NCBI GenBank assembly: GCA_020854115.1
Contig: JADZGC010000004.1
Location: 65,665 to 129,664, forward strand
Direction: 5' to 3'
Source: a bacterium
Lineage (GTDB): Bacteria; Patescibacteriota; Saccharimonadia; CAILAD01; GCA-016700035
DNA: 64,000 nt
In this document: positions 2,003-30,589 of the stretch, piece after piece
How positions within the stretch are numbered: the first letter of the stretch is position 1
Layout: the number at the start of each line of letters is the position of its first letter
Notes under the pieces: generated by a model
What the model saw: the letters and a program-made list of their open reading frames with translations, nothing else
Databases searched by the model: none
What the model was told of the DNA's origin: nothing
Program-made: the position numbers and the translations under genes

Positions 2003-3007
2003 ATGATGAGACTACATAAGAAGCTGGAGAGTCTATCTACAGCTGCTAAAAAAATGATAGCGAGTGCTGATTCTGTAGAAGCGCTTGAAAAAGCGCGAGT
2101 CCAGTTACTGGGCAAGAAGAGTGAATTGGCTAGTATATTATCGCAATTGCCTGACTTGCCAATGCGAGAGCGCAAAGAAATCGGGGCGTTGGCTAATCAG
2201 CTGAGGGCAGACCTAGAGCTGGCCATCGAGCTGCGTACACAGAAGCTTATTGACTCTGTAGATGATGCCTTAAGTTCAATCGATATCTCCGCGCCAGGGG
2301 AGTTGCATATCGTCGAGCCGGGGCACATACATCCAACGCAAGCCATACTCTCCGATATCTATGATATTTTCTTGCGGCTGGGGTTTGCAGTTGCTGATGG
2401 TCCCGAGATTGAGACTGACTGGTACAACTTCGAAGTACTGAATATGCCAGCGGATCATCCTGCGCGCGAGATGCAAGATACTTTCTATATCGAGAGTGAC
2501 GGTAAGCACCCGCCACTTGTGCCGCGCACCCATACGTCTGCCTCCCAGATTCGCTATATGGAGCAAAATGAGCCGCCATTTAAGGTCATTGTGCCGGGTA
2601 GGGTGTACCGTAACGAAGACGAGGACAGAACTCATATTTGGAGCTTTTATCAGGTAGAGGGATTGGTGGTTGGTGAAGGAGTCAGTATGGCCGATCTAAA
2701 GGGGACACTCTTGCATGTCATGAAGGAGTTGTTTGGTCCGCAGACAAAAGTTCGTTTTAGGCCAAGTTATTTCCCATATACAGAGCCATCTGTCGAGATA
2801 GATGTCTGGTATCAAGAATCCTGGCTTGAATTATGTGGGGGGGGTATGGTGCATCCAGAGGTATTACGTCAGGGGGGGATAGATCCAGAGAGGTACTCTG
2901 GCTTTGCTTTTGGGTTTGGGGCTGATCGATTAAGTTTTATTCGTTATGGTCTTCAAGATATACGCGTATTGTGGCGACCTAATCTCTTGATAAGTAAACA
3001 AGTATGA
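2003..3007 (+). CDS. pheS: Phenylalanyl-tRNA synthetase alpha subunit
   Basis: GHIHP, HPAREMQDTFY, RTHTS, FRPSYFPYTEPS, GFAFGFGADRL. Confidence 0.98.
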   Translation: MMRLHKKLESLSTAAKKMIASADSVEALEKARVQLLGKKSELASILSQLPDLPMRERKEIGALANQLRADLELAIELRTQKLIDSVDDALSSIDISAPGELHIVEPGHIHPTQAILSDIYDIFLRLGFAVADGPEIETDWYNFEVLNMPADHPAREMQDTFYIESDGKHPPLVPRTHTSASQIRYMEQNEPPFKVIVPGRVYRNEDEDRTHIWSFYQVEGLVVGEGVSMADLKGTLLHVMKELFGPQTKVRFRPSYFPYTEPSVEIDVWYQESWLELCGGGMVHPEVLRQGGIDPERYSGFAFGFGADRLSFIRYGLQDIRVLWRPNLLISKQV

Positions 3008-5853
3008 AGATAGCTGTCGAAACAATCAATCGATACTTCAAGAAACCTCTATCTACAGATAGAATGGTGAGTTTAATTGAGCGCACAGAAATCGAAGTCG
3101 AAGAAATTTTGTATGCGAATAGGCTTGATCCAAAAATTATCTTAGCTAAAGTTCTGGATGTGTTTCCGCATCCTAATGCAGATCGACTACGACTAGTAGA
3201 TATAGAATATGGTGCGAAGCGACCAACGCGTGTAGTGTGCGGTGCTCCAAATGTAGCAGTCGGGCAGCGCGTAGCCTGGGTGCGACCCGGAGCTACGCTA
3301 CCGGACGGTACGCAGATTGACCAGGCAGTCATTCGCGGTGAGAAAAGCGCAGGAATGCTAGCTAGCGCCAAGGAATTAAGCATATCGGATGACCATTCTG
3401 GAATCGTCGTGCTTGATGAAGTAACCCACTCGCTTGGAACATCATTGTGCGACATTGTATTTTCGACTGACGTCCTGGATGTGAAGACGCCTGCGAACAG
3501 GTGGGATTACCTTAGCGGGGAGGGGATAGCACGTGAGCTGTCTGCATATGATCAGTCAATTCAGCTCCTTTTGCCAGAGCGAGGGGAATATACTTATCAA
3601 GACACCGATGTCGCGAAAGTCAAGGTTAGGGAAGAGAATAAGCGGTTTCTCAGTGCTCGCTTGCGATTAAAGAACGATGTCAAAACACCATCATGGCTTG
3701 TGGATAACTTGCTCGCGAACGGATTTGTGCCACATAATCCAGTCGTCGATATTACGAATTTTGTGATGCTAGAAACCGGACAGCCATCCCATGCCTATGA
3801 TGCGAATAAAGTCCGCGGTCCCCTTACTGTGCGTTTTGCAAAGAGCGGTGAAAAACTTACAACACTTGATGATGTGCATCGTACGCTCATGGATCAGGAT
3901 CTTGTGGTATGTGATGATTCAGGTCCGATCGGACTGGCTGGCGTGATTGGTGGCGCATCGACTCAAATTGACGCCACATCAACAGAAATAATTCTCGAAG
4001 CAGCGCATTGGGATAAGACTCTAGTACGCCGATCATCCATTCGACATGGTATTAGAACGGAAGCCTCGGCTCGCTTTGAGCGCAATCTCCCACTCCCCTT
4101 GCAGCCTTACGCATTTGCGCGCTTACTTGATTTGCTGATCGACATTTGTGGCGCAGAGATTATCGAAGGACCTTTTGACCAATTGCATGCCTGGCCGTGG
4201 CGACGTTTCTTGGGAGTTCGGTTGCGCCGTGCGGAACAATACTTGGGGATGCGGCTAAAGGAAGCGGAGATGGTCAGAGGTTTACGTAGACTTGGATTTG
4301 CTGCGCATCACTTTTCTCTCTCGGCCGAGCTGAAGTCACATCTTGGTAAGCCGTATAAATGGGGCGCAAATTTCCGTCAGGATGGTGAAGAAGCCTTTGA
4401 CTGCTCATACCTGGTAGATCGTTTGTATTCGAAGCTCGGTGTAGCCGTCGGACATACTGCCTTAGGTCAGCTACATCACGGTGAAGAAGTTGACTCAAAT
4501 GATGCATTAAGACCTGGTGACGTTGTGTTTTATGAGGGCAAAATTGAGAATTCTCACACCGACCACTATTACAAGACATTGCCAGATGGCTCGAAGCAGA
4601 AAGTAGTACTCAAGTCACCGGTACGTGTCGGACATAATGGTATATATCTCGGCAACAACCAGGTTATACATGCAGCCATATATAAATTTCGCAATGGGAA
4701 GTGGGTGAAGCGTCGACAGCAAGGGGTGATCATCTCTCCCCTGTCTGAGTTTGTTGATAATCCTGGCTACATCGGTGCGCGTCGCTATATTTCGAGCTTT
4801 AATCATATTATTGCGATCGAAGTCCCCTGGTGGCGAACAGACATTACATCAGAGACTGATATCTTCGAAGAAATGGCAAAGCTAGCGGGGTATGAAAAAT
4901 TGCCAGAAAGCCTACCGCAATTGCCACCTATGCCCGGCACAGCTCAGTCACAACAGGTTGAGAACATGCGGATTCGGCATGGCCTAGTACGCCAAGGTGC
5001 AATCGAGATAAATAGCTACAGCTTTATTTCCGAAGCGGATGTAAAATTGAGTCAAATACCAGAATCTCAAGTATTACGGATAGCGAATCCACGCTCTCCA
5101 GAGCAAGCGTTCGTACGTTCATCAATGCTAGCGAGTCATGCACGATTTTGGGCAAAGCAGTCGGCGCGTGCATCGTCGCTTGGCGCATTCGAGATCTCAC
5201 GTGTGTATGAGGCACAAGGGCTTGTCAAGCAGCCGAAAGAATCTTGGCGCCTGGCGATTAGTGCGCCTGGCGAGCAAGCTCTTCAAAACGTTCAAGGATT
5301 GCTCCATTCCGTGCTGTCAGATATGCGGGCTCAGGTGACGTTTCGGGCTGGTAGGCACGACGCAGACTCGATCAGAGGATTATCTGTGTATGTGCCGCAG
5401 CGCAGCGCCGGTTTGTTCGTCGGCTCGGAGTGGGCTGGTGTGATTGGCCAGCTACGCACTTCAGTACGACGAGGCTTCTCGTTGTCTGCTGATCTAGCGT
5501 ATGCAGAGGTGCTTATTGAGCTACTGGGATCAAGTCCTCGTCCGTATCCGATTAGGGCACTACCGCCCTATCAGCTCGTCACACGTGATATCTCGCTTGA
5601 GGTACCGGTGGGTGTTTGGTGGCAGGAGATTCGAGGCGCACTGCAGTCGGATAAGCATGTGTGGCAGGTGGAGTATCGAGAAAATTATTCGGATAGCATG
5701 CTACAAAAATCAGATAGACGAGTAGTGACCGTGCGACTGTGGCTAGATCTTGGTGCTCAACCAAGCCTTGATCAAATTGACAAGTCGGTGCAACGGGCGG
5801 TCAAGGGTCTTCAGATCCAGCTGAAACAAGCTGGTAAAATCAGCGTTCGATAG
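3004..5853 (+). CDS. pheT: Phenylalanyl-tRNA synthetase beta subunit with in-frame NlpC/P60 domain insertion
   Basis: HPNADRL, VVCGAPNV, GMLASAKEL, TPANRWD, VDITNFVMLETGQPSHAYD, RTEASARFER, VPWWRTD. 949 aa because of a ~160 aa insert. ATGA overlap with pheS. Confidence 0.96.
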   Translation: MKIAVETINRYFKKPLSTDRMVSLIERTEIEVEEILYANRLDPKIILAKVLDVFPHPNADRLRLVDIEYGAKRPTRVVCGAPNVAVGQRVAWVRPGATLPDGTQIDQAVIRGEKSAGMLASAKELSISDDHSGIVVLDEVTHSLGTSLCDIVFSTDVLDVKTPANRWDYLSGEGIARELSAYDQSIQLLLPERGEYTYQDTDVAKVKVREENKRFLSARLRLKNDVKTPSWLVDNLLANGFVPHNPVVDITNFVMLETGQPSHAYDANKVRGPLTVRFAKSGEKLTTLDDVHRTLMDQDLVVCDDSGPIGLAGVIGGASTQIDATSTEIILEAAHWDKTLVRRSSIRHGIRTEASARFERNLPLPLQPYAFARLLDLLIDICGAEIIEGPFDQLHAWPWRRFLGVRLRRAEQYLGMRLKEAEMVRGLRRLGFAAHHFSLSAELKSHLGKPYKWGANFRQDGEEAFDCSYLVDRLYSKLGVAVGHTALGQLHHGEEVDSNDALRPGDVVFYEGKIENSHTDHYYKTLPDGSKQKVVLKSPVRVGHNGIYLGNNQVIHAAIYKFRNGKWVKRRQQGVIISPLSEFVDNPGYIGARRYISSFNHIIAIEVPWWRTDITSETDIFEEMAKLAGYEKLPESLPQLPPMPGTAQSQQVENMRIRHGLVRQGAIEINSYSFISEADVKLSQIPESQVLRIANPRSPEQAFVRSSMLASHARFWAKQSARASSLGAFEISRVYEAQGLVKQPKESWRLAISAPGEQALQNVQGLLHSVLSDMRAQVTFRAGRHDADSIRGLSVYVPQRSAGLFVGSEWAGVIGQLRTSVRRGFSLSADLAYAEVLIELLGSSPRPYPIRALPPYQLVTRDISLEVPVGVWWQEIRGALQSDKHVWQVEYRENYSDSMLQKSDRRVVTVRLWLDLGAQPSLDQIDKSVQRAVKGLQIQLKQAGKISVR
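4310..4800 (+). other. NlpC/P60 (C40 peptidase) domain embedded in PheT
   Basis: LGKPYKWGA...FDCS (Cys467), LRPGDVVFY, GHNGIYLGNNQVIHA (His544, His556), YIGARRY. Confidence 0.92.
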
Positions 5854-5935
5854 TACGCCACCCTAGCTTTTGTGAGTTGGCGCGTGCTACTATTATGCAT
5901 AAGCATAACTGGTAAGTGGTGGAAAAATCGCTCAA

Positions 5936-7435
5936 GTGACGGCGACAAGTCAATATAACCGCACGCAGCGTGTCACGCACGCTCATCGATTTGCCCTTCC
6001 TCGGCGGCTGTCAAAGTCTGGGCAAGCACCGAGCAAAACGGCTCGAGTGCTATTTCTGTTGCTCGCTCCGTTATTCATGTTTTTGCTCCTCAACTCCATG
6101 GCGGCAGCCTACACAGAAGGAGTGATGTATCCGGGCGTCTCAATTGCCGGCGTGAATGTATCGGGTTTAACAAAACAGCAGGCGTACACAAAGCTACAAG
6201 CCTTACCACTCGGCCGGTCATATACGATCAAGATCGACGATAAAGTATTCAAAACCACAAATGATGCACTTGGCGCGCGTTATGACTTAGACCGCACGGT
6301 CAATCTAGCGTATTCGTATGGGCGCGATACAAGTTTGCCGCTAGTTGGCCTGATGCGAATTTCTACCGAGAAGTCGCAGCTGAATCTGGCCTATGAGCTT
6401 GATTACAGGCGGCTTCAGAAATTTACCAACCAAGTGGTAGAAACAATTGGCACTCCCCCGAAGAATGCCGCCGTGGTTGTCGAGAATGGTGACATTAAGA
6501 CTGTCCCGGATGCGCCAGGGGTTGGCCTCGATCGTACGGCAGTTACGCGCCTGCTAGCTGATTCGATGGCGGGGGTAAAGGATGCAACTTTTGTGCTGGC
6601 GCCCGAAACGGTACCGGCTGATATTCAGTTGCCACAGACCGAGCCGGCAAAAGAAGAAGTAGCTAGCTACCTCAGTCTCAAGTATGACTTAGTATATGAA
6701 TCCCGACGCTTCATCCCTACCCCAGCAGAGATGGGGTATTGGGTACAGGTTGTACCTGATCGAGAGATTAATGCCTCACAATTGGTTGTCAGAATCAGTG
6801 AGCAGGAAGTACGTGGCTACATGCAGTCGGTTGCGAATCAGATAAACAAGAATCCGGTCAATAAGAAGGTGATTGTCGCGAACGGAAACTCTTCGGTCGA
6901 GCGAGAAGGGCAAGATGGCATCGCCTTAAATCAAGAAGCGGCAGTGCGTGATCTGATGGCTGCCTTGGCTGGTAAGCGAGGGGCAACCATTACACTGAGC
7001 ACTAGCCCTATCCCCTACAAGACCGAGACTACACGCACCGTTAGCTTAGATGCTCCAAAATATATTGAGATCAATCTCTCGTTGCAGCGACTTTGGGCGT
7101 ATGAAAACGGTCAAATGGTCTACTCGAGCCCGATTACCAGTGGGGCAACTGGGGCAGGGCTCGGTACGGTGACAGGATTATTCGCAATCTACTATAAGAC
7201 CACAAACACCTATCTCAATGGTCGATCGTATGGCTATAACTATAATGTGCACGTCAATTATTGGATGCCGTTCTATCTGGGGTATGGATTGCACGATGCA
7301 GCGTGGCGTTCCAGCTTTGGTGGGTCTGATTATTACTATAATGGTTCGCATGGGTGCGTTAATTTACCTGACGCGACGGCAACATTTATATACGCCTGGT
7401 CGGAGGTTGGGACCCCGGTGTGGGTACACAACTAG
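5936..7435 (+). CDS. L,D-transpeptidase (YkuD) with N-terminal TM anchor and PG_binding_4/VanW-like stalk
   Basis: YPGVSIAGVNVSGLT, IEINLSLQRLWAYENG, YGLHDA...SHGCVNL catalytic motif. Confidence 0.92.
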   Translation: MTATSQYNRTQRVTHAHRFALPRRLSKSGQAPSKTARVLFLLLAPLFMFLLLNSMAAAYTEGVMYPGVSIAGVNVSGLTKQQAYTKLQALPLGRSYTIKIDDKVFKTTNDALGARYDLDRTVNLAYSYGRDTSLPLVGLMRISTEKSQLNLAYELDYRRLQKFTNQVVETIGTPPKNAAVVVENGDIKTVPDAPGVGLDRTAVTRLLADSMAGVKDATFVLAPETVPADIQLPQTEPAKEEVASYLSLKYDLVYESRRFIPTPAEMGYWVQVVPDREINASQLVVRISEQEVRGYMQSVANQINKNPVNKKVIVANGNSSVEREGQDGIALNQEAAVRDLMAALAGKRGATITLSTSPIPYKTETTRTVSLDAPKYIEINLSLQRLWAYENGQMVYSSPITSGATGAGLGTVTGLFAIYYKTTNTYLNGRSYGYNYNVHVNYWMPFYLGYGLHDAAWRSSFGGSDYYYNGSHGCVNLPDATATFIYAWSEVGTPVWVHN

Positions 7436-13424: not shown

Positions 13425-14275
13425 CCGCTCTGGACGAGGTCGATCCAGGCTGGCGGAAGCAATATATTCGTCGTCTTGGACTTAGTAGAACAAGTTACTA
13501 CGTTCGTCCGACCAAACAAGCTAGTCTCGACAACCAAGCTGTTGCTGAGCTTCAAGCAGTTCATGAGGTGCATCCATTCTACGGTGTTGACCGTTTGAGC
13601 ATGCATCTCGGCTGGAACAAGAAGAAAACCAGGCGGATTCGTGACTTAGCTGGTGTGGTCATCCCCACTCCTGTCAAAAAGCGTCGAGGCAACAAATCTA
13701 GCAAAGCAGAAATTAACGCTCCACTCAATATCTTGCAACGCTATGCCAAGTTCAAAGATGAGCTCAGACCGCAAGACGGCATGGACTACATGGGCATGGT
13801 GGATGCCCATGCCTGGGTGCAGGACTTTACCTATCTGTGGCTTAGTAAAAACACGCACCACTTGGCTGTAGTTTTAGATCTCAAAACTAGGCAGGTTGTT
13901 GGTTGGCGACTTGGTCTGCGTCACTCCAGTGAGCTAACCCACGAAGCCCTACTTGATGCTCTGAGTAAGCACGATAGTCCAGCTATCTTACATAGCGACC
14001 AAGGAAGTGAATATCTGAGCTACAAACACCAGGACTTATGCGCCAAGATGGAGATTCTACTCAGCGCCAGCAACAAATCTAGTCCGTGGCAAAACGGCTT
14101 CATGGAGCGTTGGTTTGGAGGCTTCAAGCGTGAAATGGGAAACCTTAGTCAGTACAAAGATTTAGCCCAACTTCATGAAGCAATTGCCATGCATATTTAT
14201 TACTATAACCACAAACGCATCCACACGGCATTAGGCATGAGTCTAGCAGCTTACGCTGCTAGCCTCAAAACCTAG
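13403..14275 (+). CDS. IS3 OrfB DDE transposase, reached by -1 frameshift
   Basis: -1 frame open from 13403: LGLSRTSYY, WVQDFTY, HSDQGSEY, QNGFMERW, YYNHKRIH. Confidence 0.88.
   Translation, partial: DTTPKRLAALDEVDPGWRKQYIRRLGLSRTSYYVRPTKQASLDNQAVAELQAVHEVHPFYGVDRLSMHLGWNKKKTRRIRDLAGVVIPTPVKKRRGNKSSKAEINAPLNILQRYAKFKDELRPQDGMDYMGMVDAHAWVQDFTYLWLSKNTHHLAVVLDLKTRQVVGWRLGLRHSSELTHEALLDALSKHDSPAILHSDQGSEYLSYKHQDLCAKMEILLSASNKSSPWQNGFMERWFGGFKREMGNLSQYKDLAQLHEAIAMHIYYYNHKRIHTALGMSLAAYAASLKT
13412..13456 (+). promoter_or_regulatory. -1 programmed ribosomal frameshift signal
   Basis: Slippery heptamer C CCA AAA (13412-13418) in the orfA frame, followed by hairpin ccgc-tctgga...tccag-gctg-gcgg. Confidence 0.7.
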
Positions 14276-23452: not shown

Positions 23453-24526
23453 CGTATAGAACTCAGGACCTTTGCAACATTTCAGCAGGCGTCAGTAACT
23501 GCAAGCCTAAGTGTACGCGCTTAGTGTTGTAGTAGTCGAGATACGTCGTAAGCTTATCTCGCTGGCACTTAAGCGACACACTCCTGTTCCAGTAGTAGCC
23601 AATACATTCGGTTTGGATGGTGCGGTTAAATCGCTTAATGTGAGCGTTGTCATTCGGTCGGTGCAGCCGACTGTGTCTAGTAGCAATGCCATGAGACCGC
23701 ATTACTTGCTCAAAATAGCGTCCGTACTCCGGCCCATTGTCAGCTTGTATCATAGTCACTCTAAAGCCCCAACTGTCTTGAGCTTCCAGTACAGCTTGAG
23801 CCGCTCGTCCCGGACTCAGCTTTGCCGCCAGGGTAACGTAAGCCATTCGGCTGAATAAGTCTATGACTGTGTAGTAGTACAGTCTCCTACCGCTACGGGG
23901 GTCAACATGGTGGATGGTATCCGTCTCAACTAATTCACCTGGTCTCACGGCATATGGACGATGAGGGTTATCTCGTTTGAGTCGTGGCTTCCTGGCACCA
24001 TCAAAGCAGTGATGACGCCGCAGAATACGACGCACACTGCTGAGGCTAAGTCTTACTCCAAGAGTGTTTGTTACGTAATACCAGACAATCTCAGCACAAC
24101 GCATTAACTTAGCCCGGGCAGCTAGAACGAGCCTGACTGTCGCCCCGGGAATAGCATTAGGACAAGTATGCGGCCTAGAGCTTAGTGTAGCGATTCGCCA
24201 GCTACAAGCAGTTAGCTTGTGAGCTAGGCTAACCGATCGGCTAGGCCGGTTAGGGTTGTCAAATTGGACATATCGGTTAAGCTTGTCCCATTTGCGTTTC
24301 CAGCGCCAGATGGTTGAGCGATGAACACCACACTTTCTTGCGACAACAGCCAGAGGTTGTTGGTCTTCGACCAGTAACCGCATAGCGGTTGCTCTGGCAC
24401 TAGGTAAGTTAGGGTTGATAGAATAAGCCATGGTAGGCTCCTTTCTTATTAGTTGTTGATACTAACAGTTTAGGACGCCTACCTTTTTTAGTTCAATTTA
24501 GGTTGCAAAGGTCTTGAGTTACTACG
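23453..24526 (-). mobile_element. IS481-family insertion sequence with 6-bp target site duplication
   Basis: Terminal IRs cgta..aactcaggacctttgcaac and gttgcaaaggtcttgagtt..tacg. AAAACA duplicated at 23447-23452 and 24527-24532. Confidence 0.9.
23463..24431 (-). CDS. IS481 DDE transposase; third catalytic residue appears as K (NAHIKRF)
   Basis: HTH VARKCGVHRSTIWRW, RPGELVETDT, VIDLFSR, IQADNGPEY, NDNAHIKRFNRT, YYNTKRVHLGL. Confidence 0.9.
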   Translation of the reverse strand: MAYSINPNLPSARATAMRLLVEDQQPLAVVARKCGVHRSTIWRWKRKWDKLNRYVQFDNPNRPSRSVSLAHKLTACSWRIATLSSRPHTCPNAIPGATVRLVLAARAKLMRCAEIVWYYVTNTLGVRLSLSSVRRILRRHHCFDGARKPRLKRDNPHRPYAVRPGELVETDTIHHVDPRSGRRLYYYTVIDLFSRMAYVTLAAKLSPGRAAQAVLEAQDSWGFRVTMIQADNGPEYGRYFEQVMRSHGIATRHSRLHRPNDNAHIKRFNRTIQTECIGYYWNRSVSLKCQRDKLTTYLDYYNTKRVHLGLQLLTPAEMLQRS

Positions 24527-28733: not shown

Positions 28734-29432
28734 ATGGGCCAAATCAGTGATTTCCTATATGCGTATCAAGCCCAGTCTGATGCTGAGCGGGCGATTATTA
28801 TCTTGCCCGAGATCTTTGGCGTCAAAGACTTCACGCGTGAGCTGGCAGGCAAGGTACAGATAGAGCTCGGCTGGAATGGGTATGTGCTTGACCATTTCTA
28901 TGCTGTAACCGGTGAGGTGCAGACTTTTGCGTATGACGACATGTCGGGGATGGAGATCATGGAGCGTATGACTGGAGAACTATTTTTGCCATTATTGGCG
29001 CAGGCAGTTGGCATGATACAAGAAGCGCAGCCCAAACTAAAGCATCTTGCGGTCTGGGGATTTTGCTTTGGGGGCAAGCTCGCGTATCTCTCGGGAGTTA
29101 ACCCCCATGTGACCGATATTGTTTCCTGCTATGGTGGCGCCAGTGTGCAACCGGGATTTTATGCAGGCGATTCGGTGGTCCAGGCATTAGCTCGAGCACG
29201 CTATGCGGATAAGAGTCTCAAGATCTTGGGTGTATATGGTGAGCATGATCCAATGATTCCTGCAGCTGATCGAGAAAAAATATCTACATTACTTACTGAA
29301 TCTAAGATCTCACACCAGATCAAGGTGTATGACGCTGGCCACGCATTCTTCAATGAGGATCGAGCAGATCGATATGTCGAAGCTGCGGCTAAAGCTGCGT
29401 GGAATGATGTGTCAAACTGGCTTAAGCGGTAG
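28734..29432 (+). CDS. Dienelactone hydrolase family protein
   Basis: EIFGV, GFCFGG nucleophile elbow, GEHDP, AGHAF. Confidence 0.92.
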   Translation: MGQISDFLYAYQAQSDAERAIIILPEIFGVKDFTRELAGKVQIELGWNGYVLDHFYAVTGEVQTFAYDDMSGMEIMERMTGELFLPLLAQAVGMIQEAQPKLKHLAVWGFCFGGKLAYLSGVNPHVTDIVSCYGGASVQPGFYAGDSVVQALARARYADKSLKILGVYGEHDPMIPAADREKISTLLTESKISHQIKVYDAGHAFFNEDRADRYVEAAAKAAWNDVSNWLKR

Positions 29433-29445
29433 TACCGGCAGTTAA

Positions 29446-30141
29446 TTAAGCGCCGAATCGACGCTGTCTATTGGCGTAATCTTCTAGCGCAGCTGAGAGG
29501 TCAGTTTCATCGAAGTCCGGCCACTTCTTGTCTATAAAGTAGAGCTCGGCATAAGCTGCTCGCCAAAGCATGAAGCCACTAAGGCGTTTTTCACCAGAAC
29601 TGCGGATAATCAAATCGACTGGTGGGACATCGGGCACGTATATATTCTGGCTGATTGTTTCCTCAGTAATCTCCTCTGGATTCATGCCAGAACGTACAAT
29701 CCGCTTCGTGGCATCAACGATCTCCTCATGGCCGCCATAGTTTAGACACAGTACGAGTGTTCCGTTTGTATTATTCTTCGTATGGTCCTCGGCTTTTCGG
29801 ATAAGCTTGAGAATTTTTTCTGACAGTCGATCGTCATTGCCGGCAATACGTATGCGCACACCCCGAGTGTGGATGTCATCGAGCTCATGCTTCGCAACCC
29901 ATTCGAGTAGTTTCATGATAAATGCAACTTCTTCGGTGCTGCGCTGCCAGTTCTCGCGCGACCACACATAAGCGGTGACGTATTTGACGCCGCTCTCGAG
30001 GGTCTTGAGGCCTATTTCTTTGAAGTTTTTATACCCCTGACGGTGGCCTTCTAGGATAGGGAGGCCCTGTTCTTTTGCCCAGCGGCGGTGACCGTCAAGA
30101 ATAAAGCCGACGTGGGTCGGGATGTGTGATTCGTGTTGCAT
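29446..30141 (-). CDS. uppS: Undecaprenyl/polyprenyl diphosphate synthase
   Basis: PTHVGFILDGHRRWA, SRENWQRS, LNYGG, DLIIRSSGEKRLSGF. Likely true start is MQHESHIP. Confidence 0.96.
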   Translation of the reverse strand: MQHESHIPTHVGFILDGHRRWAKEQGLPILEGHRQGYKNFKEIGLKTLESGVKYVTAYVWSRENWQRSTEEVAFIMKLLEWVAKHELDDIHTRGVRIRIAGNDDRLSEKILKLIRKAEDHTKNNTNGTLVLCLNYGGHEEIVDATKRIVRSGMNPEEITEETISQNIYVPDVPPVDLIIRSSGEKRLSGFMLWRAAYAELYFIDKKWPDFDETDLSAALEDYANRQRRFGA

Positions 30142-30222
30142 ACGTGTATTTGTGAAACCATTATATCCTACTCGAGCTGCGACAGAAGTCAAACACCATC
30201 TGATTTTTATCGAGAAATAGTA

Positions 30223-30252
30223 TTGACCCCGGATGTGCAGTCGTGCTACCAT
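30223..30252 (+). promoter_or_regulatory. Probable promoter for the 23S-5S transcript or the upstream structured RNA
   Basis: TTGACC-18-(TG-extended)TACCAT. Confidence 0.5.
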
Positions 30253-30589
30253 CGTTGACAGGTATACATAAGGAGTAGTCCACGCGTGAGTAACCGATCC
30301 ACATTTGGAGGCACCCGCCACTAAGCTGATTTTAGCTCGGGGATTCACGCGTGGCCGCCTCAAAAAAGCGCCACGTTTTTATTTTGCTCATTGACATAAG
30401 CATCTTTGATAGTAATCACTGATTCTAGCCGACGACTATCAAATATAAGGTGCGATCATAGAGAATAAGGGTAATACAAATGTGATTTAATGTTAGAGAT
30501 AGTAATAGTAAACCAGCTTGCGATTGTGGACTGGTTATTTCTAACGAACCGACAACGCACTTGAAAGAGTGTGTTAGTCATCTCAAACG

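Follow-up and report, generated by a model that had tools for sequence, protein, structure and literature searches.

A complete NlpC/P60 peptidase domain nested in the B5 domain of a patescibacterial phenylalanyl-tRNA synthetase β subunit, with a possible role in cell-wall precursor processing

The NlpC/P60 DL-endopeptidases, among them C. difficile Acd24020 (7cfl), E. coli MepS/Spr, and B. subtilis LytE/CwlO, share a common fold, a Cys–His dyad, and a Tyr/Trp/Asp/Ser pocket. These features recur in a 64,000-nucleotide stretch of contig JADZGC010000004.1 from a bacterium of the Saccharimonadia (the window), in which pheT, the gene for the β subunit of phenylalanyl-tRNA synthetase (PheRS), carries an in-frame NlpC/P60 domain. 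Unlike the endopeptidases, this insert resides in a cytoplasmic aminoacyl-tRNA synthetase (aaRS) and has no export signal or wall-binding domain; it also replaces PR with GH and DCSG with DCSY, has two extra hairpins, and varies at the third triad residue. A second point of comparison is YkfC (dipeptidyl-peptidase VI) of B. cereus (PMC2954226) and its chlamydial counterpart (10.1101/2022.11.17.516864). YkfC shares with the insert the signal-less NlpC/P60 architecture and the S1 residues, and wall-fragment salvage is its proposed role. The insert lacks the SH3b domain and Asp256 of YkfC, so it would not be limited to substrates with a free L-Ala, and its proposed product would feed MurE directly.

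Compared with bacterial PheT (TIGR00472), the protein has the usual domains in order, the B5 acidic and editing residues, and the pheS–pheT pair, but its B5 hairpin, which in 33 insert-less PheTs contains a short loop, is longer by ~160 residues. The LeuRS of the same genome likewise carries a small hydrolase, a NUDIX domain, in frame within an essential synthetase, although host and enzyme differ. This LeuRS (L229:845-4087, G000:C12) is 1080 aa long, with the NUDIX insert at residues 501–621 and a further, unassigned insert of ~130 aa near residues 237–365. We found no published description of a PheT+NlpC fusion or of such aaRS insertions in the literature searched, which did not cover supplements and most subscription papers; PMC13622651 proved unrelated to the fusion. 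The failure to find MurB, MurC, MurD, MurL, and MurI in this genome and the co-variation of the insert state with MurC/D, both reported below, are new here.

A complete NlpC/P60 domain inside PheT

The original prediction described a 949-aa PheT with an NlpC/P60 domain in frame inside B5, and the open reading frame (ORF), Pfam, NCBIfam, and AlphaFold2 (AF2) all bear this out. Model score (491 bits against NCBIfam pheT_bact, TIGR00472; cut-off 403), B5 acidic residues, and a neighboring pheS identify the protein as PheT, the only pheT match in the genome. Pfam recognizes tRNA_bind, B3_4, NLPC_P60, B5, CLM, and, weakly, FDX-ACB. In the profile scan that the prediction had called for, NLPC_P60 scored 50.6 bits against a gathering cut-off of 23 (best stretch, residues 448–521), and the best B5 stretch covered the C-terminal half only (601–630). 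The two strands of the B5 hairpin flank the insert, and the anchors that enclose 48–65 residues in the 33 insert-less PheTs enclose 211 here. No export signal or wall-binding domain was found for the insert, around which Pfam reports PheT domains only. Residues R611, D613, D619, E622, and E623 of B5 are invariant in 58/58 relatives; we take the acidic ones to bind Mg.

Structure prediction, also suggested as a check, was run on the insert and on the full protein, with predicted local distance difference test (pLDDT) scores of 94.4 and 90.6, respectively. The top Foldseek match of the insert model is the NlpC/P60 domain 7cfl (E = 2e-9; template modeling (TM) score 0.83 by target). The predicted papain-like fold, with Cys before His, is that of the NlpC/P60 family (PF00877, C40), and C467, H544, and H556 occupy the positions originally claimed. 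The junctions, which were to be confirmed at read level, are spanned without joints: three DNA runs, each from a different study, provide single contigs that cover positions 2900–6000 with 5–6 differences, and any of these runs may be the source of the assembly. A chimeric assembly, of which there is no sign, was rejected on the basis of these contigs and the same fusion in relatives. One RNA run yielded two short contigs at 3958–4257, outside the insert, and is uninformative on its expression. We conclude that the complete NlpC/P60 domain inside B5 is a real, conserved feature.

The fusion recurs widely among relatives. Of 87 protein matches to residues 400–635, 86 are PheT+NlpC fusions, the query's own entry among them, and the source, in the few cases where it is named, is Saccharibacteria or Microgenomates. 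A PheT match was found in 58 of 61 genomes (our own and its relatives), and all 58 contain the insert. Across 300 sampled genomes of the phylum, seven are fused and two carry a stand-alone form, and 51 of the best 150 representatives at 50% identity are PheT fusions with the insert at this position. When the insert is left out of the host tree, the majority of fused PheTs group in a single clade (FastTree 0.99), with G309 and P0087 outside, and three insert-less PheTs of group f25 fall within it. An L,D-transpeptidase gene directly follows pheT in 52/53 loci with enough downstream DNA, dead alleles included, as well as in G120, G305, and the three insert-less f25 genomes; it is nearby in G123 and was found after pheT in 0/13 insert-less genomes outside the fused clade. 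Its position after the f25 pheT genes favors a clean loss of the insert there, which is the likely history of these three genomes. In one relative (L051, G024), pheT is broken into two frames (353 and 619 aa), either by a frameshift or by an assembly error.

Active site, selection, and exchange

The insert contains the catalytic dyad C467/H544 and a third polar residue, H556. The dyad is kept in 42/58 relatives (hereafter intact); the other 16 (dead) lack the Cys, and 15 of these also lack the His. In G050 the Cys alone is lost, its codon being one base from that of its sister. The proposed Cys-His-His triad thus stands in our protein, but its third residue is not conserved across the 42 intact genomes (H 11, Q 11, E 11, M 4, T 3, D 1, S 1).

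According to PMC2954226, the γ-D-Glu site consists of Tyr226, Trp228, Asp237, Ser239, and a small residue at 257, Arg255 belongs to the active-site hydrogen-bond network, and Asp256 together with an SH3b Tyr marks enzymes that require a free L-Ala. PMC4600125 agrees that Asp256 and the SH3b Tyr are missing from lysins. Mapped by motif position against PDB relatives, the γ-D-Glu site corresponds to Y451, W453, D466, S468, and A486 of the insert. Among intact genomes, Y and D are kept in 42, the small residue in 42, S in 40, and W in 29, with Y, W, D, and S all together in 27/42. Retention of this pocket supports a reading of the insert as a γ-D-Glu endopeptidase. The Asp256 position is T485 (Thr in 35/42 intact genomes, Asp in none), a replacement that would allow an N-blocked substrate. 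Both marks of the YkfC subfamily, Asp256 and the SH3b tyrosine, are absent, and no SH3 domain appeared in the Pfam scan. The insert belongs to NlpC/P60 and its host to PheT, apart from the YkfC subfamily and the secreted autolysins, and its role may be recycling-like.

Intact inserts are under purifying selection. The ratio of nonsynonymous to synonymous substitution rates (dN/dS) is 0.03–0.10 in 8/11 intact pairs, similar to the PheT core and again supporting an endopeptidase; two of the remaining pairs are saturated and one is a swap at 0.29. Dead inserts show 0.24–0.34 in 4/6 pairs, the other two being uninformative. Degenerate orthologues, which the original prediction had regarded as a potential counterargument, therefore exist in part: 16/58 inserts have decayed and evolve faster, and 42/58 keep the dyad under purifying selection. 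This decay indicates that some lineages can do without the activity and that it is not required by PheRS. The fold is retained after loss of the catalytic residues.

Comparisons of host and insert point to exchange of the insert between relatives. The pair L033/L036 is 88% identical in the host part and 49% in the insert, L018/L034 is 84% and 63% identical, and DNA identity falls across the insert. Identity between L025 and L028 rises from ~65% to 90–100% across residues 400–700. The tree of 85 inserts was built with FastTree. Approximately unbiased (AU) tests on 21 inserts rejected three host-sister pairings, which were picked after the distances had been seen. An essential tRNA synthetase is thereby shown to host an exchangeable enzyme cassette.

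A precursor pathway gap and a candidate reaction

The source genome (G000, 99.5% complete) encodes MurA, MurE, Ddl, and MraY, along with MurF-like, MurG-like, MurT/GatD-like, and OppA-like proteins. The murC, murD, and racemase models had no match in it, and tblastn searches with relatives' MurB (3 queries), MurC (2), MurD (4), MurL (1), and MurI (2) returned no orthologous match, the exception being one weak MurD-to-MurE cross-hit. No murC lies at its syntenic site within the contig (window positions 28734–30363), and no murD at the corresponding mid-contig site after rnc (C12, after 55480). The missing block makes UDP-N-acetylmuramic acid (UDP-MurNAc)-L-Ala-D-Glu, and the retained block starts from that molecule.

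Within the order, insert state co-varies with this gap. Counting split pieces, MurC or MurD turned up in 15/16 dead-insert genomes vs 12/42 intact ones (MurD alone, 12/16 vs 11/42), and the Cys–His dyad is kept in 30/31 genomes lacking both. Fisher's test gives p = 1e-5, with kin that are not independent. A Pagel-type test, run on 56 tips of the PheT tree (G024 and G055, whose PheT frames are broken, were omitted), gives a likelihood ratio (LR) of 6.5 (p = 0.04), or of 9.9 when G050, an 86% complete genome, is excluded (p = 0.007). MurE is present in 13/13 MurC/D-less intact relatives tested. Loss of the entire Mur-ligase set in dead lineages was considered and rejected, since Mur ligase matches occur in 61/61 genomes and the signal is specific to MurC/D. 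Among 41 hand-picked genomes, 36 have MurD, including 17/17 insert-less members of other orders in the class; the five without it are G305 and G309 (fused and intact, distant from our genome, with MurE), G232 (a short stand-alone NlpC), G151, and G063.

We favor, at somewhat less than even confidence, a reading in which the insert is a cytoplasmic γ-D-Glu endopeptidase, carried on PheT, by which host precursors are trimmed to the substrate of MurE. In the mechanism that we infer (activity, substrate, host origin and uptake of the precursors, residue preference, and PheT as carrier alike), the cell would take up peptidoglycan precursors that presumably come from a host, with UDP-MurNAc-tri- to pentapeptide the likeliest. 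The insert would cut these after D-Glu to give UDP-MurNAc-L-Ala-D-Glu for the cell's own MurE, and by favoring precursors with a foreign third residue it would escape futile cycling with that enzyme. PheT would serve as an abundant, essential carrier and not as a functional partner. Lineages with MurC/D would make the dipeptide precursor themselves, leaving the site free to decay. The gap and its co-variation lend comparative support to the earlier idea of cytoplasmic processing of host-derived muropeptides. We also count for an endopeptidase the L,D-transpeptidase that follows pheT across the fused clade, with 0/13 outside it, and the cytoplasmic NlpC/P60 peptide-recycling enzymes of a host-dependent (chlamydial) bacterium (10.1101/2022.11.17.516864).

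Several observations weigh against this endopeptidase. Among 80 further phylum genomes (of 102 planned), 22 lack MurD, of which 18 have MurE (one below the cut-off); 21 of the 22 have no match to this NlpC family and one has a weak match. Such MurD-less, MurE-positive genomes indicate that the domain is not a general solution, though there may be divergent MurD or missed NlpC matches among the 22. MurC/D is kept in 12 of the intact genomes, in fused G120, G186, G341, and G123, and in the stand-alone carriers G069 and G171. The correlation emerged after several families had been tried (Mur ligases, racemase, MurD, MurC, Dtd) and rests on few independent events and incomplete metagenome-assembled genomes. 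The pocket itself is altered: Arg255 is replaced by H484 (His in 38/42 intact genomes), and DCSG by DCSY (38/42; S468 in 40, Y469 in 40). Canonical PR is kept at the Arg255 site in 20 of the 51 fused representatives, the other 31 being of the G-x type found here (25 GH). The enzyme could cut the cell's own MurE product in a futile cycle, and retained MurA and the uptake route for UDP-precursors are unexplained by the model. Finally, all fusions found for the clade besides that with PheT involve tRNA enzymes (QueH, TYW3), which, with the retention of B5, suggests a link to tRNA.

A broader scenario, possible but on balance doubtful, is that one order of Patescibacteria repeatedly dropped MurB, MurC, and MurD and uses UDP-MurNAc-peptides stolen from hosts to build its wall. 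The PheRS-housed peptidase would reset these to the dipeptide so that MurE adds the parasite's own third residue, and the cassette would be swapped via its B5 flanks, perhaps matching host stem chemistry, and escape as a mobile stand-alone B5::NlpC gene. The question bears on how Patescibacteria build walls despite pathway gaps and on what their hosts supply. The insert also provides a small, foldable enzyme with a named, testable reaction (UDP-MurNAc-peptide to UDP-MurNAc-dipeptide) and natural dead alleles as controls.

The MurE-positive, MurD-less state, found in 18/80 genomes, looks common in Patescibacteria. In relative G034, a MurL-like epimerase lies beside murD (L283:132-1427) and may explain the scarcity of MurI.

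Stand-alone forms and alternative explanations

Two genomes, G171 and G069, encode proteins of ~200 aa that consist of the B5 N-terminal half, NlpC, and the B5 C-terminal half. In total, 865 proteins match this stand-alone family at E 0.001; among the 120 matches listed, lengths are 199–230 aa and identities to the query 54–61% (self-hit aside). The family aligns to PheT 404–611 (hhalign 99.9%; Atlas TM 0.76 over 194 residues), with an invariant Cys-His-His, conserved basic motifs, and Arg at the Trp228 and Asp256 positions of the pocket, and without the B5 EE pair. Alongside its stand-alone form, G069 has a separate insert-less PheT; in G171, rated 100% complete, we found no full PheT, only B5::NlpC and a separate tRNA-binding piece (L095, L098). 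Across 80 loci the gene has no steady neighbor, and pheS lies beside it in one. A second peptidase as a recurring neighbor was considered and dropped: the 80 loci hold just one C39 gene, with no homologue in the other loci, among genes downstream of pheT, or in our own genome. Some records at these loci (L112-L191) are labeled non-Patescibacteria, and P0322 is a second, differently shaped stand-alone B5::NlpC protein of 219 aa.

The best-surviving alternative, which we nonetheless consider unlikely, is a tRNA-linked quality-control hydrolase (e.g., a D-aminoacyl- or N-acyl-aminoacyl-tRNA deacylase) that would reach tRNA via B5 or PheRS. The tRNA substrates of the original prediction thus survive as a live rival, chiefly through the fusions: similar, signal-less NlpC domains (P0317, P0352-P0354, P0415) are joined to QueH (N-terminal; four clusters) and to a TYW3 methyltransferase (C-terminal). 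Both B5 halves in the two stand-alone forms and the basic motifs of their family point the same way. A same-strand tRNA lies ≤500 bp upstream of the stand-alone gene in 18/76 loci vs 18/617 other genes, but tRNA adjacency is also a mark of mobile genes. Dtd was not found in 61/61 genomes, dead-insert ones included, so its absence does not track activity and complementarity with the insert state is uninformative. Pth is present, and H263 and E332 of B3/4, which we take to be editing residues, are kept in 56/58 and 54/58. A tRNA hydrolase also leaves the MurC/D co-variation unexplained. If this explanation is correct, tRNA would here be the substrate of an NlpC/P60 enzyme, a situation of which we know no earlier example.

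Also unlikely, and placed after the tRNA hydrolase, is a general YkfC-like stem-peptide hydrolase that frees mDAP (diaminopimelate)/Lys, D-Ala, and D-Glu from imported peptides, is unrelated to the MurC/D gap, and rides PheT as NUDIX rides LeuRS. The kept S1 residues, the OppA-like protein, and the LeuRS insert fit such an enzyme, as do the occurrence of MurI in 5/16 dead vs 2/42 intact genomes and the chlamydial precedent, which includes an SH3b-less enzyme (10.1101/2022.11.17.516864). However, the features that determine the use of free peptides, Asp256 and SH3b, are absent from the insert, and a cell without MurC, MurD, or Mpl could not couple the released L-Ala-D-Glu to UDP-MurNAc. The MurI signal, moreover, comes essentially from one clade.

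That the insert is a mobile passenger, spreading by recombination through its B5 flanks with no steady benefit, seems improbable. The swaps between close relatives (L033/L036, L018/L034), whose pairings the AU tests reject in the insert tree, would fit, as would the 16/58 dead inserts, the likely clean loss in f25, and the patchy occurrence (seven fused in 300 genomes). Against this, the Cys–His and pocket residues are invariant in 86/86 proteins down to 27% overall identity, dN/dS is 0.03–0.10, and insert loss tracks MurC/D. Intein or nuclease features are likewise absent from the sequence. Inteins start with C/S, end in HN, and are followed by C/S/T at +1; the junctions here read HHF-SLS and FNH-IIA, with no intein Pfam match, and an intein was rejected.

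A γ-glutamyl hydrolase for folylpolyglutamates or poly-γ-glutamate is very improbable: thyA/folA/folC/glyA beside the first two relatives examined and the two pocket Arg residues of the stand-alone family had hinted at it, but the folate link faded once 80 stand-alone loci were compared (thyA and folA in only 5, glyA in 4, folD in 4, partly shared synteny). Equally remote is the earlier suggestion of moonlighting, here as a surface lysin that attacks host peptidoglycan, which found no support: the closest solved relatives are autolysin domains, but the insert is nested in a cytoplasmic aaRS without a signal or wall-binding domain, and the genome separately encodes an NlpC+LGFP protein whose N terminus has a hydrophobic stretch. 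The latter (L032:1441-2460, G000:C13) is a 339-aa LGFP + NlpC/CHAP-like protein and a candidate secreted wall hydrolase.

Table 1. Coordinates of the features in the window
Feature	Position	Strand	Basis	Remarks
pheS, PheRS α subunit	2003..3007	+	ORF, profile matches	overlaps pheT start
pheT, PheRS β subunit, 949 aa	3004..5853	+	ORF, Pfam, NCBIfam	with nested NlpC/P60 domain
B5 N-terminal half, ~residues 402-436	4207..4311	+	AF2 secondary structure	ends in hairpin strand 1
NlpC/P60 insert, residues 437-599	4312..4800	+	Pfam, AF2, Foldseek, motif mapping	
Key insert residues	C467, 4402-4404; H544, 4633-4635; H556, 4669-4671			also Y451, W453, D466, S468, H484/T485/A486
B5 C-terminal half, residues 601-630	4804..4893	+	Pfam, alignment	with R611, D613, D619, E622, E623
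L,D-transpeptidase	5936..7435	+	Pfam	N-terminal hydrophobic stretch, PG_binding_4 + YkuD
Dienelactone hydrolase gene	28734..29432	+		syntenic site of missing murC; followed by uppS here, by murC in relative G021

The window also contains two insertion sequence (IS)-type integrase (rve) ORFs, at 13568-14275 and 23463-24431, and of the 46 tRNA genes called in the genome, two are tRNA-Phe(GAA).

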